Positions 10,412 through 18,386 of a stretch of 64,000 bases of DNA are shown piece after piece; position 1 is the stretch's first letter; each line of letters begins with the position of its first letter. Under the pieces are notes generated by a model, which saw only the letters and a program-made list of their open reading frames with translations, ran no database searches and had not been told where the DNA came from. Source of the DNA: a virus; the IMG/VR virus record IMGVR_UViG_3300005747_000263, positions 1-64,000 of that record; one strand, given 5' to 3'. The position numbers were made by a program, and so were the translations under genes.

Positions 10412-10436
10412 ATTATTTATCCTCCAACGTATTAAA

Positions 10437-10510
10437 CGGGCATACTGCGATTTGAACGCAGGTGAATCGCTTAGAAGGCGATACGGATATCCGAACTACC
10501 TCATATGCCC
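10437..10510 (-). tRNA. tRNA-Arg(UCU)
   Basis: Acceptor GGGCATA/TATGCCC; anticodon stem ATCGC/GCGAT with loop CT-TCT-AA; T-arm CTGCG-TTCAAAT-CGCAG; G18G19A20; no encoded CCA. Confidence 0.88.
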
Positions 10511-10536
10511 AAAAAGAGAGAAAAAGGTAGTATTGA

Positions 10537-12075: not shown

Positions 12076-12443
12076 TAAATTAACTCCTTGATTCTCTTAA
12101 ATAATTCACCCCAAGAACTCAAGTTCTTGTATTGTACGACGTTTGCGTCATCTTTTAATTCATCGCAATCATCAAAGAGTAAATCATATCGCACTTGTCG
12201 CTTAGAATACATATTCTGTGCTTCAGGACTACTCAATACACTAATATTGTGTAATCGGTGTGCCTTAAGATTGTAATGAATACTTCTTAGATTAGTAATG
12301 GGTCGAGCAGTTAAAATAAAACAACTTACTTCTGGTGTATCATTTAATACTCTTAGCGCTTGTAATGCCCCATGCGTCCATTTAAACTCTGTGACGGAGT
12401 TATCTCTACAAGTATCATCCCAATCTATTGCAACTCTAATCAT
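12075..12443 (-). CDS. HAD-superfamily phosphatase (nucleotidase-like, minimal)
   Basis: VAIDWDDT (motif I), ILTAR (II), K, LLFDD (IV). Confidence 0.75.
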   Translation of the reverse strand: MIRVAIDWDDTCRDNSVTEFKWTHGALQALRVLNDTPEVSCFILTARPITNLRSIHYNLKAHRLHNISVLSSPEAQNMYSKRQVRYDLLFDDCDELKDDANVVQYKNLSSWGELFKRIKELI

Positions 12444-12463
12444 ATTAAACTCTCAACTACTAG

Positions 12464-12545
12464 TGCCGGAAGTAGGATTCGAACCTACGAACCACTAAGG
12501 ACAGGTTCTTAAGACCCGCGTCGTTGGCCACTTGACTATTCCGGC
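12464..12545 (-). tRNA. tRNA-Leu(UAA)
   Basis: Acceptor GCCGGAA/TTCCGGC plus discriminator A; anticodon arm CGGGT-CT-TAA-GA-ACCTG; long variable arm; T-arm GTAGG-TTCGAAT-CCTAC. Confidence 0.93.
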
Positions 12546-12653
12546 GAGTGGGTTAATTATTCCTCGTAATGAATACACTCTAACTGACATTCATCAGTAA
12601 TAGTTCGCTTCCAGTACTCATAATAAGTGCGCTTGAAAAAACTCTTAATAAAG

Positions 12654-12887
12654 TTAATCATAGATAATTCCTGCAATGATTCCATTGCTAACAATTACTT
12701 TTCCGTAATTGCTGTCTGGAGTTGAAATGCAAATATATTGTCCATCGGGGATTCCAATCGGCGCAAGTTTACCAACTTTATAGTAATTACAATAGCAAAC
12801 AATATACCCATCAAAGTTCGTGTATGAATCATACCATTTAGTTTGCCAACTATATCCATCGTGCTCAATAGTGTCGTATAATCCCAT
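12654..12887 (-). CDS. hypothetical protein
   Basis: MGLYDT...WQTK N-terminus typical of small viral ORFs; coupled. Confidence 0.5.
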   Translation of the reverse strand: MGLYDTIEHDGYSWQTKWYDSYTNFDGYIVCYCNYYKVGKLAPIGIPDGQYICISTPDSNYGKVIVSNGIIAGIIYD

Positions 12888-13117
12888 TAGTCATCCCATC
12901 CGGGCATAATCATGTTAATCTCTGATGCAGCAATGCTAATAAGTTTAACTGCGCCGTCCTTACGTCGGTGCCTTACTTGCACCGGGCCATAATTCTTACC
13001 ATCCATGGCGCAATTTACTTCATACTCATGGAACTCGCTTGACATATTCTCAGTAATATTGAGCATAGTCAGTCGTCCAATAGTAGTATAATTGATTCGA
13101 ATATCGGCGTACAACAT
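12887..13117 (-). CDS. hypothetical protein
   Basis: Small coupled ORF. Confidence 0.5.
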   Translation of the reverse strand: MLYADIRINYTTIGRLTMLNITENMSSEFHEYEVNCAMDGKNYGPVQVRHRRKDGAVKLISIAASEINMIMPGWDD

Positions 13118-13118
13118 T

Positions 13119-13346
13119 TTACTTCACTTTCTTGTACGGATTAAAATAGCACCAAGTGTGAGTATTAAGTAAAGTTCTTAATGTTTCAATGCAGTCGTCC
13201 TTATCTTTATCGGTAGGACTAACTGCTCCACTAATTAACCAACTCTTGGTTAAGGATGAAATTAAGTGATAGGCGCGGCGTTGCCAAAAGCGAAACTTAT
13301 ACCCGCACCATAAACAATGAGTATGTTTGGGCAATTCAATTTGCAT
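13119..13346 (-). CDS. hypothetical protein (HC.WCG Zn motif)
   Basis: GAGGAAG RBS; HTHCLWCG. Confidence 0.55.
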   Translation of the reverse strand: MQIELPKHTHCLWCGYKFRFWQRRAYHLISSLTKSWLISGAVSPTDKDKDDCIETLRTLLNTHTWCYFNPYKKVK

Positions 13347-13433
13347 ATCTTAATCTTCCTCATCGCCTGTGATGAAAGGGATAATGTCAATGACTGGTAC
13401 TTTATTCATAATAAGTATACTCCTGATAATAAT

Positions 13434-13506
13434 TGGGGGCGTAGGGATTCCAACCCTAACTTAATTACAAGCGAAGTGCTATACCAAGCCGCGTTTGGTG
13501 GCCCCC
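13434..13506 (-). ncRNA. degenerate tRNA-like element (tRNA-Thr(UGU)-like)
   Basis: GGGGGC/GCCCCC plus A acceptor; T-arm TAGGG-TTGGAAT-CCCTA; GGTATAGCA D-loop remnant; CT-TGT-AA loop with an imperfect stem; variable loop almost absent. Confidence 0.55.
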
Positions 13507-13509
13507 GTA

Positions 13510-14015
13510 AGGAAATGAAAATAGAGTTTTCTCTCAACTATTGTTATAGCGCTGTTGAGAATATAGGATTACTCTATAAACCTAAGTCAAATAATATACG
13601 TTGCATCTTCCCGATGCTAACTATACTGCATTTTGTGTACCATGTTAATAGTTTAATACCCTTTAACAATATAACGCTTTGCTATCTTTGGTAAAAAGAT
13701 GCCACTCTTAATACTTTATACTCGGTAGCCCCCGAGTCTCAAACACACTTAAATAGTGTGTGGAGAGTGAATAATTGGCGCAAGCGGCTAACTTGACTTA
13801 GGCTGATAACAAAGCGCCTAACTTTGTGTCCGTATCTCAATTAAATAACCCTAGCCAGGACTTTTAAATTTAATCAGACCAATCATTTCATTATATACTC
13901 TTTTATGAGCAATTATCATCTCACTTAAAGAGTATAATACTTAACACGGTTTGACTCAATGTTAAGCAGAAAAGTGCCCCGACTCTAATCCAGTAATGGC
14001 GGTCGAGGACTTGGG
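13510..14015 (-). ncRNA. putative large structured (pseudoknotted) ncRNA
   Basis: Crossing long-range helices 13805-13818/13673-13686 and 13792-13804/13579-13591 with G-U pairs on the minus strand; at least 7 further local hairpins. Confidence 0.6.
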
Positions 14016-14048
14016 TTTTTATTCGTAATACTTCACAGTATTCTTCTT

Positions 14049-14504
14049 TTAACTGTCGCGGACAGATTGAAGGGCACCCATGTATTCTTGGAACGAATCC
14101 ATAGAATCAAAAGTGTCACCTCCGCTCATAAAGCCGAAAACTTCGCCCTTGACATCAATAGTCGCACCGGGCGTTCCATCGGCTTTAAGATACAATTCCG
14201 CCGGTAGGGGAATTCCATCTTCCGTTGTTTCTTGACGCAATCGACGAATACTTACTTCCGTGTATTCACCTTTCGTTGGGTGCATGACCTGAGTCTTTTG
14301 CACCAAACGAATGTGGTCGTTTCCGCGAATAAGGCGTTCGGAGAGAACATTACGTTCAATCTTTTGCCGTCCACGGGCTTTCTTTTCCAGATTAACCGCT
14401 TGGAATTTACTATTATGAATAAATCCCAGAACGGTTCCGCTGGAATCACGGACGATAACATTGTTATCATCAATGATTGCGCCTTCGGGTAGGTTAGAAA
14501 CCAT
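14049..14504 (-). CDS. hypothetical protein, possibly nucleic-acid binding
   Basis: 151 aa; GGAGG RBS; flanked by structured non-coding sequence. Confidence 0.7.
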   Translation of the reverse strand: MVSNLPEGAIIDDNNVIVRDSSGTVLGFIHNSKFQAVNLEKKARGRQKIERNVLSERLIRGNDHIRLVQKTQVMHPTKGEYTEVSIRRLRQETTEDGIPLPAELYLKADGTPGATIDVKGEVFGFMSGGDTFDSMDSFQEYMGALQSVRDS

Positions 14505-14508
14505 TTTA

Positions 14509-14633
14509 ATCCTCCATTATCCTTAATAAGAATACTCATGCCGTTAAATACCAAAACAACAACAAACCATGAACATCTACAAACAATACCTTTCCAGGTG
14601 ACATGAGTAAACTTATTAAGTAGGATAGAGGAC
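14509..14633 (-). promoter_or_regulatory. RBS-sequestering long 5' hairpin
   Basis: GTCCTC/GAGGAT, TATCC/GGATA, TTAATAAG/CTTATTAA and TACTCATGTC/GGCATGAGTA pair over the GGAGG RBS of the 14504 gene. Confidence 0.65.
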
Positions 14634-14639
14634 ATAAAG

Positions 14640-15350
14640 AGAACGATAAGTAGAAACTTACCGTTTAATCCCTTTATGCACGGATGAAGTCAGAGCAAAG
14701 ACTGTTATTCTTAAACCCCATACGCCGGGTTTATCCGCTTACCTAAAGGTCCTTTTAATTAGGTAAGAAACGTTTTCAATTTTTATTCACTTAAAGCGCT
14801 ACTCCTCGCTTGGTTATAATTAACAAGCAGAACTTTTAGTAAGCAAACGCCAATTTACTTTATTTCTTACCCTCATTAGTGTTATGTAAGGGGAATACAT
14901 CCCTGCGGCCAAACTAACGGTACTTATTTACCTTATCGCCGTTGCGTATTTTACGCCTCTAAAATTATCTTCTTACTATACTGAAACATAAAATCCATAA
15001 AATGGTTAAGATTTCGTAATCACTTTTATATTCCCGACAAGAGAGAATGTCACTTATCACGGAGGCGAATGTATCATTTTTATAGTCCACTACTTAAATG
15101 TAATGGACATATGTGGCTGTCGATGCACACAATAAAACAAATACCGTACCTTAAGGTATAGTCCAGCAAGGCTGTCCAGATACTTGAATTACATATCGCG
15201 TGGCTTACACGCCTTAACCGAAATACACGGGAAGGGCGACACCTATCCCAAAAATGAACCCCGAGGGATGCATAAATGAAATAGTTATCGCGCCGCCCAT
15301 CCCGCATATCGCAGATAAGACGCCACAAGACACCCTATTGGCCGGGATGC
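14640..15350 (-). ncRNA. putative large multibranch structured RNA
   Basis: Nested long-range helices GGCGATAAG/CTTATCGTT, TACCGTT/AACGGTA and GCAGGGATG/CATCCGTGC enclose hairpins CTTACCTAA/TTAGGTAAG, TAAACCC/GGGTTTA and GCTTG/CAAGC; more stems at 15085-15350. Confidence 0.55.
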
Positions 15351-15352
15351 CG

Positions 15353-15413
15353 AAAGGTATATGAACCCCTACGTTAGGGTTATATAGGGGGCCGGGAACC
15401 TACATAAGGGTTG
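15353..15413 (-). promoter_or_regulatory. cluster of TATA-like elements
   Basis: AACCCTTATGTAG, CCCTATATAACC and GGTTCATATACC on the minus strand just upstream of the structured region. Confidence 0.4.
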
Positions 15414-15772
15414 CGCCACTAAATACCTTAACTCGGCCGCCATACATACAAGTAATACGCACTCAGTATCTATACAGTATAATCATAACACCATAATGAT
15501 ACCCTTAAACGCAACTCATGCTCACTTAAAGAGTAATTACTTCTACTCGGTACGAGTAAAGTAAGTATAATAAATCGAGGATGTAAAGTAAATACAATAA
15601 ATTTTAGATTGTAAAGTAAATAACTTAAATGAATACTAATAAAAAAAGACACTCCCCGTATAATTATTCATGTTAGGTAAAGTGGGTAGAGGAGTAATTA
15701 CCTTAGACTTTAGTCACAGGGAGTAATTACTATTGTTGGGATGAGGGTTTTTGGGTTAAACACCGAAAACCT

Positions 15773-15880
15773 CAGAATCGCTTTCTAAGGCACTTTCTTT
15801 ACCCAAAAGGTAAGGATATACCACTATGTGCGGTAAAGTGTCTAAAAAGGCCGTTTCTGGGCTTCTGAGAGCATTTTAGA
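15773..15880. repeat. dispersed ~100-bp element, copy 1 (gyrase-site-like)
   Basis: CAGAATCGCTTTCTAAG, with GGGCTTCTGAG starting 80 nt after the CGC. Confidence 0.55.
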
Positions 15881-15918
15881 GTAAGGGGGATAAGGTAAGA
15901 TTGCACTAATGCGCTGTT

Positions 15919-16929
15919 TTAGTCCTTTTTGGCCGCGATTTGAACGTATTTTTGGACCGGAGCCTTCTTGGAAAGAAGTTTAGTCAAGTCTGTCTTAGGC
16001 AGACTAACACTTTCTCCTTCGGGAAGGTTTCCAATTGTTGGAATACGTCCATCAGCAGTCTTGAACACTTTACTGTTCTTCCGAGGACCATAAACATCAT
16101 AACTCATGCGGTTGAAAAGAGACTTAACCTCTTTCTTGGCAAGATGACTAACAGCCTTACTGTTGTAATCATCTTCTTCAATGTGCTTAATCATATTATC
16201 AATGACCAAGCCATTAAAGACAGGTAGATTCGTTTGGACCCCGTTAATAACAGCATTACAGTACCGGAGTTTATTGGCATAATTCAAGAAGTCTGCCTTA
16301 TCCATGTCTTTCAAGTTGGCAGGGAAATAACCATCTTTAATGGCTTTCTCCATTGTAAGTCCCAAAACATGATGGGCCACCAAGTCAAGAATCTTAGACA
16401 CGAAGTAAGGCGAATAGTGACTTACACCGAGTCCGGCACCGTAAAGTTCTTTGTTCCCTGGAGCGTCTGTAAGAGAAGAAGCCCAGGTCACGCCGTGAAT
16501 CGTATTAAAACGAACGTTGGCGTGTAAATCGCGCTTAGCGACACGGACATTGGACTTAACAGACTTATAGCCGGTTTCATCCTTAAACTTAGACAAGAAG
16601 CGCTTCTTAGCGACATAATCGCTAACAGTCTCGATGACCATGTTTTTCTTATCCATGACACCCGCCTTGATTTCTTCAATAACTTTCAGGTTTTGAGCCA
16701 TCAAGTAAGAAGCACAAAGGACCACAGCGTTTTCATACAACCTTTTCAGCGAGGCCGCACTTTGTTGCAGTTTTCCGGCGCTGGTGATTTTAATCTTAGG
16801 TTTGGATTGCTCCACCCAAAGATTAACATCTTTTTCGTGCGCCTTGTTCAGTTCAGCAAAAATGCGAGCATCGCGTGTGTTTTTGACATTAACCTTGTCG
16901 GTAATGTTCTTAAGTTTGTCGTTTTGCAT
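15919..16929 (-). CDS. hypothetical Lys-rich protein (probable early gene)
   Basis: 336 aa; AGGAG RBS; own TATA box and 5' hairpin ATAAGCAC/GTGCTTAT. Confidence 0.75.
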   Translation of the reverse strand: MQNDKLKNITDKVNVKNTRDARIFAELNKAHEKDVNLWVEQSKPKIKITSAGKLQQSAASLKRLYENAVVLCASYLMAQNLKVIEEIKAGVMDKKNMVIETVSDYVAKKRFLSKFKDETGYKSVKSNVRVAKRDLHANVRFNTIHGVTWASSLTDAPGNKELYGAGLGVSHYSPYFVSKILDLVAHHVLGLTMEKAIKDGYFPANLKDMDKADFLNYANKLRYCNAVINGVQTNLPVFNGLVIDNMIKHIEEDDYNSKAVSHLAKKEVKSLFNRMSYDVYGPRKNSKVFKTADGRIPTIGNLPEGESVSLPKTDLTKLLSKKAPVQKYVQIAAKKD

Positions 16930-17045
16930 AATCTAATCTCCTTATTTTTGGTAGAGATTTGAATTAAACTATACGGGGAGCGTATCAATCATAAGCACCT
17001 ATTCGCGCCCAAAATGCGTTATTGTGCTTATGGTGGGGGAGGGTA

Positions 17046-17062
17046 AGGTATAAAGGTTAAGG
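17046..17062 (-). promoter_or_regulatory. archaeal-type TATA promoter
   Basis: CCTTAACCTTTATACCT ~120 nt upstream of ATG 16929. Confidence 0.55.
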
Positions 17063-17214
17063 TTGGGCCATCGCGTAAAGCGGAATACCTGCGGCGCGTC
17101 CTGCGCTTATTCGTCTTAATATGGAGTATACCTTGCAACTAGATAAGGCTGTCGATGTCTAATCCGCTTACCCAGAATCGCCGCCGATAACCCGAATAAC
17201 CCAATTTCGCGGCC

Positions 17215-18160
17215 CATATGAGTAATTACTCCTGGTATATACTAATATAATACTATACACATACAGTATACACTAACATAATTACTCCCGTGTCCGTATA
17301 CTAATCAATATAATACTATACAATAAGTAATTATACATAATCAAAGTATACCTGTAATATATATAATTATACATAAGAAATAATTAACTTTGATTGGGGT
17401 AATTATACGCGAATCGACAGGTATAATTGACTTTTGAGGTAAATTTAGCACCACAAAGACATACTTATGTCCACCCCCCAAGACAATTACTCCTTACCCC
17501 CCAAGGTAATTTCTCCTTATCTGTCCCTCCAATCCAAGATAATTTATTCTTACTCGGAGTAAAGTTTAAAAAACTTTACGACTCGCAAAGATTTTTAATC
17601 TTTGCTCGATACGAGTTAGGAGTAATTACCTTTGCTCGGCGACTCTATTGTATTAATAATAAATTTTGGGGCAAGAGTAATTACCTTTGCTCGGCAGGGT
17701 GTATTTAAGATAAATAAGCGCTACTCGGCAGGAGGGTATTTAATTTAAATAATGAATCCCCAAGCAAAAGTAATTACCTTACCCCCCTAAGGGGGCAGGA
17801 AGTTTTATGATTAAATGACCGAATTGGTCGGTCAGGAGGAATTACCTTTGGTTCAGACGGTCAGAATCGCCGTCTAAGCCACTTCGAGCCTTCAACCCTC
17901 CACGGGATAGCCACCGTGCCGTCGAAGGCCACACGAGGCGCTTTAGGGCCTTTACGTTGTACTCGCCCCGCAAGAGTTAATCGAAATACTCTCTACTCGC
18001 CGGGGATAAGGTATTTATAATATATCGGGCGGATTTTTTAAAAAAAATAAATTTAAAATTTATTATAAAAAAAATAAATTTTCACATCGTAAGTAAAATA
18101 AATAAATCCTGATACCAAAAAAATTTAACCAATAAAATTTATTGGTTAAGAATAATAGAT
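17215..18160. other. AT-rich repeat-laden control region (candidate replication origin or terminus)
   Basis: Multiple GAGTAATTAC motifs, CTTTGCTCG x3, AATATAATACTATACAC x2, very AT-rich 18030-18150 with palindrome TTAACCAATAA-AAT-TTATTGGTTAA. Confidence 0.5.
17861..17955. repeat. dispersed ~100-bp element, copy 2
   Basis: CAGAATCGCCGTCTAAG, with GGGCCTTTAC starting 78 nt after the CGC. Confidence 0.55.
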
Positions 18161-18212
18161 AGGGGGTCGGCCATGGGATCCCATGGGGAAAAGAAGAAGG
18201 GGGAAAATGGGC

Positions 18213-18386
18213 CTAAGATTCTTCAAAGGTCCCTTGGACCGACAGTTCCCCGCCACACCACTTGACGCCGTAGGCGAAGCGGTGGCGGTGGAACCGCCGG
18301 CCGCCGGGATTCTGAGCCGCGCCAGACAAGACGGGTACGGAAGGATGGAGGTTGCACGTTGCGACGGTTGTCATTTGGGCCGCCAT
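18213..18386 (-). CDS. hypothetical 57-aa protein (GC-rich cluster)
   Basis: ATG just after the stop of 18388-18753; followed by a pyrimidine tract. Confidence 0.45.
   Translation of the reverse strand: MAAQMTTVATCNLHPSVPVLSGAAQNPGGRRFHRHRFAYGVKWCGGELSVQGTFEES

Follow-up and report, generated by a model that had tools for sequence, protein, structure and literature searches.

Phage early transcripts carry long structured 5′ leaders and intercistronic processing structures, such as the T7 early-region RNase III hairpins (~60 nt) and the precursor RNAs of the T4 tRNA cluster. The large RNAs GOLLD and ROOL are widespread and are found near tRNA genes, in viruses or prophages (PMC5737381). The locus described here is a ~640-nt ORF-free gap (13410-14050) in a 74,011 bp virus genome (IMG/VR record IMGVR_UViG_3300005747_000263), the first 64 kb of which form the window, i.e. 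the whole stretch of DNA analysed (64,000 nt). It shares with GOLLD and ROOL an ORF-free length of several hundred nucleotides, multistem junctions, a possible pseudoknot, a viral source and proximity to tRNA genes (PMC5737381). However, GOLLD and ROOL are defined by widely conserved, covariation-supported structure, with ROOL present in three phyla, whereas the gap is known from one sequence and has no known relatives; ROOL has six junctions and three pseudoknots, versus one predicted closed domain with five hairpins in the gap, and the gap RNA has no defined 3′ end of its own. Like the T7 and T4 leader structures, the gap lies between same-strand genes and downstream of a promoter-like element, with a Shine-Dalgarno sequence and ORF coming immediately after its stable hairpins and long-range helix, and its tRNA-shaped element could direct endonucleolytic processing. 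It is, however, much longer than the ~60 nt of a T7 site, and its tRNA-like element fails the tRNA model. The reading preferred here, with a probability of roughly 0.4, is that the gap comprises a promoter followed by a structured, possibly processed, leader RNA.

All genes from position 1 to ~17,000 lie on the minus strand, with the gap inside this block, and plus-strand structural genes (terminase, portal, major head protein) start at ~20.6 kb. Although its CheckV completeness is 58%, the record is classified under direct terminal repeats; its first 100 bases do not occur a second time in the record as an exact stretch, so either the terminal repeat is short or the record has been rotated. 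Each of the six frames of the gap carries at least six stop codons of mixed kinds (TAA, TAG and TGA), so no stop-codon reassignment opens a frame, and a recoded genetic code was rejected. A hidden protein gene was also rejected: a 125-aa plus-strand ORF looks spurious, being of low complexity, without a ribosome-binding site and antisense to the gene block, while on the minus strand of the gap ORFs >43 aa are absent and Shine-Dalgarno-led ORFs were not seen by eye. Further long ORF-free stretches lie at ~14505-15920 and 16930-18350. A replication origin at the gap is unlikely, with the cumulative GC-skew minimum at 17-18 kb. Features of the gap and its borders, in the 5′ to 3′ direction of the minus strand, are as follows.

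14504-14049, minus strand: orphan gene (151 aa) with a strong GGAGG ribosome-binding site, bordering the gap.
13972-14012, minus strand: terminator-like hairpin (AAGUCCUCGAC...GUCGGGG.CACUU, then UUCUGCUU), just past the stop codon of the 151-aa gene.
13938-13968, minus strand: hairpin UGCUUAACAU/GUGUUAAGUA, corresponding to CTTAACA/TGTTAAG; z -3.3, pair probability 0.94.
13916-13959, minus strand: 46-nt promoter-like element (TTGAGT, 17 nt, TATACT, then CTTTAAGTGAG), with a second copy at 15516-15560.
13894-13936, minus strand: hairpin UAUACUCUUU..GUGAG/CUCAU.AAAGAGUAUA; z -3.8 (more stable than all 200 shuffles), pair probability 0.85.
13805-13818, minus strand: 5′ strand of helix A, GGCGCUUUGUUAUC; duplex energy -18.3 kcal/mol.
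13579-13804, minus strand: 226-nt domain closed by helix B, with five inner hairpins (probabilities 0.73-1.0).
13788-13782 and 13707-13701, minus strand: inner stem of the helix B domain, GCCGCUU/GAGUGGC.
13761-13743, 13737-13720, 13700-13684, 13668-13643 and 13627-13593, minus strand: inner hairpins of the helix B domain.
13673-13686, minus strand: 3′ strand of helix A, GAUAGCAAAGCGUU, taken in the MFE structure by a local hairpin (AUCUUU/AAAGAU) and short pairings.
13521-13577, minus strand: hairpin AUAGAGU...UCUCAAC / GUUGAGA...ACUCUAU; z -3.1, inner stem probability 0.71.
13434-13507, minus strand: weak tRNA-like cloverleaf, ending 10 nt before the next Shine-Dalgarno sequence.
13423-13417 and 13409-13350, minus strand: Shine-Dalgarno sequence CAGGAGU and 19-codon ORF, from the sequence and the ORF list.
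13346-13119, minus strand: 75-aa ORF after the 19-codon ORF; these two are the genes that a putative leader would serve.

The only Rfam 15 match in the window at gathering score is a tRNA (12464-12545). At E≤10, a search of 13200-14300 gave three chance-level snoRNA/thermometer matches (E 4.9-9.3). The comparison with Rfam, which the earlier note had named as the check on novelty, thus leaves the gap without a known-family match at gathering scores or at E≤10, and because no Rfam family matches, the gap RNA is not of a known class. GOLLD (RF02032; 416 model positions, gathering score 150 bits) has no match at E≤10 in the whole record, nor does ROOL (RF03087; 574 positions, 99.1 bits) at E≤10 across all 74 kb, with control genomes that themselves hold no ROOL.

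The large pseudoknotted RNA proposed in the earlier note was built on two minus-strand helices, both of which are present as claimed. Helix A pairs GGCGCTTTGTTATC (13818-13805) with GATAGCAAAGCGTT (13686-13673) over 14 bp, three of them G-U, and helix B pairs AGCCTAAGTCAAG(T) (13804-13791) with (A)TTTGACTTAGGTT (13592-13579) over 13-14 bp, including two G-U. In a scripted helix search these are the two longest uninterrupted helices of the gap (14 bp each); their order is indeed A-B-A′-B′, so that they cross, and their 5′ strands are contiguous. The smaller pairings listed alongside them were found as well (CACTCT/AGAGTG; ATAGAGT/ACTCTAT around TCTCAAC/GTTGAGA; TATACTCTTT/AAAGAGTATA; CTTAACA/TGTTAAG). 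Helix B is predicted with a mean pair probability of 0.94-0.99 for RNAs starting at either 14050 or 13925. Helix A, being incompatible with B, has a probability of ~0-0.01 in the nested ensemble. With B forced and the strands of A left free, the energy is -74.0 kcal/mol versus -85.1 for the nested optimum, and the nested pairings displaced by helix A are worth ~-11 kcal/mol. The usual penalty for pseudoknot initiation is ~9-10 kcal/mol (Dirks-Pierce), and after this conventional charge the A × B pseudoknot is calculated to be iso-energetic at best with its nested alternatives. With linkers of 105 and 81 nt, the topology is sterically feasible. On these models an A × B pseudoknot is possible rather than indicated, and the argument for a large pseudoknotted ncRNA is a weak one.

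The terminator-like hairpin at 13972-14012 has pair probabilities of 0.89-0.98 and a local z of only -1.8; it is not called by a consensus terminator scan and has a large loop, atypical for an intrinsic terminator. The hairpin at 13938-13968 overlaps the -35-like hexamer of the promoter-like element, and the 5′ arm of the next one (13894-13936) is the conserved promoter-like motif itself. By eye, none of the hairpin loops of robust stems has GNRA form. The downstream Shine-Dalgarno sequence has an unpaired probability of 0.3-0.97, and because it is not clearly sequestered no simple translational switch is evident. A short element that immediately precedes the 5′ strand of helix A (GTGTCCGTATCTCAATTAA, 13826-13844) is 79% identical to GTGTCCGTATACTAATCAA (17290-17308) in the AT-rich repeat region at 17.3 kb, a resemblance that may be due to chance.

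The fact that the non-Watson-Crick positions of A and B are all G-U on the minus strand had been taken as pointing to selection on an RNA. This argument is circular: G-U pairs are no independent sign of selection because the helix finding itself allowed G-U on the minus strand. In the same type of search, again allowing G-U, helices of ≥10 bp number 15 on the minus strand and six on the plus strand, against a mean of 10 in dinucleotide-preserving shuffles of the 641 nt. At least one helix of ≥14 bp was obtained in 96/500 shuffles (19-24% overall) and two in 11/400 (2.8%); helices of ≥13 bp average 0.64 per shuffle, and an abutting pair of them arose in 4/400 (1%), in a test chosen after the pattern had been seen. 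When the minus-strand block was tiled into 27 windows of 641 nt, two or more helices of ≥14 bp were present in two, the two holding long ORF-free stretches. The excess of helices over chance is modest.

Folding energies are similarly close to what the genome offers elsewhere. The fold of the whole gap (-173.2 kcal/mol) has a z-score of -5.85 (20 shuffles) or -3.7 (12 shuffles), and coding windows of 641 nt from the same genome give -4.3, -4.5, -6.2 and -9.4, placing the gap within the genome's own background. Coding regions throughout the genome fold more stably than their own shuffles, with a mean z of -2.5 and a minimum of -6.8 in 226-nt windows. For the 226-nt helix B domain z is -4.99 (minus) and -5.95 (plus); the thermodynamic signal is therefore not strand-specific, the plus strand folding as well against its own shuffles as the minus. 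Within the gap, the 298-nt stretch 13560-13857 has a z of -4.55, with 0/200 shuffles as stable, and local hairpins range from -3.1 to -4.4.

When the gap was compared with the rest of the 74-kb genome by blastn, the 46-nt promoter-like element was the only part found repeated, 13916-13959 matching 15516-15560 with 78% identity over 46 nt (E 0.02); its core 15-mer (TACTCTTTAAGTGAG) occurs exactly twice in the window. TTGAGT-17-TATACT matches 9/12 positions in a sigma-70-like scan, a consensus that may not fit the host. The second copy has a poor -10 hexamer (ATTACT) and is not called sigma-70-like by the scan. Both copies head several hundred ORF-free bases of the minus strand, followed by a gene with a strong Shine-Dalgarno sequence, and the element is a candidate virus-specific promoter or start element. 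Sigma-70-like sites in general number 19 in 12400-15000, compared with 7.5 ± 2.7 in shuffles. A consensus scan of the minus strand found no intrinsic terminator within 13410-13970, and transcription would accordingly be expected to continue into the ORFs downstream.

The second copy heads a neighbouring ORF-free kilobase (~14505-15520) which, like the gap, is on the minus strand, contains many helices of ≥13 bp, has no Rfam match and precedes a gene with a Shine-Dalgarno sequence. The bodies of the two stretches lack sequence similarity, however, and paralogy was rejected, the 46-nt head being all that they have in common. They also differ in that the neighbouring leader buries the Shine-Dalgarno sequence of the next gene in a long hairpin, which the gap does not clearly do. 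This imperfect hairpin (14510-14632, minus strand) has 31-nt arms, 81% complementary, and pairs the GGAGG region of the 151-aa gene with sequence ~90 nt upstream; a terminator-like hairpin (14665-14642) lies just ahead of it, and of all fold z-scores obtained for the genome the most extreme (-8.7 to -9.4) belongs to 14100-14740 (641 nt). Because the neighbouring leader buries the Shine-Dalgarno sequence of the 151-aa gene, structured leaders seem to be a habit of this genome, and given that predicted hairpin RNA-level control is plausible in the early region. About 250 nt of the 151-aa gene are also covered, in a different frame, by a 127-aa ORF (14252-14635, minus strand). This ORF lacks a ribosome-binding site and is probably spurious; if so, 14505-14640 is likewise non-coding. 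At ≤1 mismatch, a palindromic motif (GTAATTACT; consensus AAGGTAATTACTCYT) occurs 79 times, versus 20.8 ± 4.7 in shuffles, with its matches concentrated in the ORF-free 15.5-15.7 kb and 17.2-17.8 kb and scattered elsewhere; this is likely an operator or promoter array near the switch between the divergent gene blocks.

Searches for relatives of the locus returned little. The gap has no match among the 50,697 phage records of INPHARED (blastn 'distant'), and the flanking proteins of 151 aa and 336 aa have no homologues in IMG/VR; in a set of 5.8 billion proteins the 151-aa protein matches itself only. Relatives of the terminase with 49-56% identity were found solely in Logan assemblies. The terminase gave no usable relative in IMG/VR, where the best match in terminase alignment is 33% identical, a single 2-kb contig (52%) not reaching the locus in JGI metagenomes, and no match in GTDB genomes. 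Exact DNA patterns for the tRNA-like end and for the A/B junction have no match in IMG/VR; the tRNA-like pattern has two in GTDB genomes, both in unrelated sequence and at the chance level estimated for a pattern of this size. The promoter 15-mer occurs at 36 loci in IMG/VR, none with extended similarity (blastn, nhmmer).

The earlier note was right to place the gap beside tRNA-like genes: tRNA-Leu lies at 12463-12545 and a weak cloverleaf at 13434-13507. The cloverleaf has a 6-bp G-C acceptor stem (GGGGGC/GCCCCC), a T-arm (UAGGG-UUGGAAU-CCCUA) and a D-like arm, lacks a proper anticodon arm (3/5 anticodon-stem pairs) and carries G in place of the expected C56 in its T-loop, UUGGAAU. Its acceptor stem is predicted with a probability of 0.99, in two transcript contexts, and its T stem with 0.64; the z-score of the whole element is -0.7. 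A tRNA assignment would call for ≥29 bits, five base pairs and a 7-nt loop in the anticodon arm, and a T-loop of canonical form; RF00005 gives 13434-13507 10 bits (E 2.8), far below the 29-bit cut-off, and the element falls outside the tRNA family. ARAGORN reports 13434-13506 as 'tRNA-Ala(cgc)' solely at the relaxed setting -ps80 and makes no call by default. Elsewhere in the minus-strand block, ARAGORN identifies tRNA-Arg(tct) at 10436-10511 (minus strand), which the Infernal tRNA model does not report at gathering score or at E≤10 and which may be a divergent or degenerate tRNA.

With an 80% threshold ARAGORN also extends the cloverleaf into a 300-nt tmRNA candidate (13434-13733), whose 5′ GGGGGC could pair with the 3′ GCCCCC. 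What recalls tmRNA (RF00023) is this potential pairing of a G-rich 5′ strand with a tRNA-like 3′ end, together with the ~300-nt span and the crossing helices. Tags encoded by tmRNA usually end in a hydrophobic ...LAA-type sequence, and G3-U70 is the alanine identity pair. A tmRNA should match the covariance model, carry G3-U70 in an acceptor stem resembling that of tRNA-Ala and have a tag reading frame that includes a resume codon. RF00023 has no match at E≤10 in the whole record, while 14/14 control genomes match, and the tmRNA-clan models have none at E≤10 over 13200-14300. A tmRNA was rejected: the gap differs in lacking the model match, in having G3-C70 rather than G3-U70, in its aberrant T-loop and in the implausible tag that it would encode (ERKLYFHFLTGATKRGLV, without a ...LAA-type end).

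In the preferred reading, the gap would be a transcribed non-coding spacer in the leftward (minus-strand) early gene block. From 5′ to 3′, the terminator-like hairpin of the 151-aa gene would be followed by the 46-nt element, acting as a promoter or other cis-acting start, from which we infer that transcription begins, then by ~500 nt of structured leader. The leader would have one robust predicted long-range feature, helix B closing the 226-nt multi-hairpin domain; it would also take in the 13577-13521 hairpin and the tRNA-like cloverleaf, which ends 10 nt ahead of the ribosome-binding site of the 19-codon and 75-aa ORFs. An acceptor/T-arm minihelix is the minimal shape that RNase P recognises. 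The corresponding part of the cloverleaf could provide an RNase P-type cleavage site, parting the structured RNA from the mRNA, and the whole may act in cis on the downstream genes, as a module for stability, processing or expression. Helix A would represent an alternative or chance pairing and not a stable pseudoknot.

That the structure is incidental, the gap being a plain regulatory spacer made of a terminator hairpin, at least one promoter and AT-rich filler in which A, B and the domain are chance pairings, is quite possible, if on the doubtful side. Such a spacer would fit the occurrence of a ≥14-bp helix in 19-24% of shuffles, the negative z-scores of the genome (mean -2.5 in coding windows, with single values of -6.8 for 226 nt and -9.4 for 641 nt), a plus strand as structured as the minus, robust-stem loops without the GNRA form typical of large folded RNAs (judged by eye) and the enrichment of sigma-70-like sites in 12400-15000. 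However, two ≥14-bp helices arose in 11/400 shuffles and abutting pairs in 4/400, multiple ≥14-bp helices are confined to the 2/27 windows with long ORF-free stretches, none of 200 shuffles is as stable as 13560-13857 (z -4.55), and an ORF-free gap of 640 nt is long for a compact viral genome, all of which argue for something beyond filler. A decayed or divergent gene of the tRNA family, either a degenerate tRNA (13434-13507) or a divergent viral tmRNA (13434-13733) that starts with GGGGGCU as acceptor strand, contains pseudoknots and ends in a tRNA-like domain, would account for the relaxed ARAGORN calls, the partial tRNA match of 10 bits and the tRNA genes in the region, but is very improbable given the lack of a match with default ARAGORN or RF00023, the G3-C70 pair, the implausible tag and the UUGGAAU T-loop.

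A stand-alone, trans-acting viral ncRNA of 300-500 nt, comparable in kind to GOLLD and ROOL and with an A × B core (a 27-bp quasi-continuous helix formed by one contiguous 5′ strand with two distant partners), is unlikely; it would be new because no known family matches. Helices A and B could stack coaxially because their 5′ strands are contiguous, and on this geometry the linkers of 105 and 81 nt would suffice; abutting long helices are rare in shuffles (4/400), the sum of -74.0 and the A duplex (-18.3) comes near the nested MFE of -85.1 after the pseudoknot penalty, and a viral location near tRNA genes matches the context of GOLLD and ROOL (PMC5737381). Against this, helix A gains less than the displaced nested pairings (~-11 kcal/mol) once a penalty of ~9-10 kcal/mol is charged, a terminator or defined 3′ end of its own is absent, GNRA loops (by eye) and conserved-looking junctions are lacking, the z-score is not above the genome background and the G-U argument is circular; in addition no homologue was found, whereas GOLLD and ROOL are widespread (PMC5737381). 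A bolder version, in which a coaxial A+B pseudoknot on the 27-nt strand organises a ~240-nt domain of a new large viral ncRNA class, released by cleavage at its 3′ tRNA-like module (mascRNA-style, in a prokaryotic virus) and forming one of two promoter-led RNAs that flank the orphan 151-aa protein, perhaps the partner of this RNA, is more unlikely again.

The main value of this locus, represented at present by one sequence, is as a marked site for revisiting with related genomes or metatranscriptomes. If real, the structure would be another large viral RNA near tRNA genes, a context in common with GOLLD and ROOL. In that case two promoter-led, highly folded non-coding RNAs around one orphan gene would take up ≥1.5 kb of the early region of this virus, an allotment that would be unusual for compact viral genomes.
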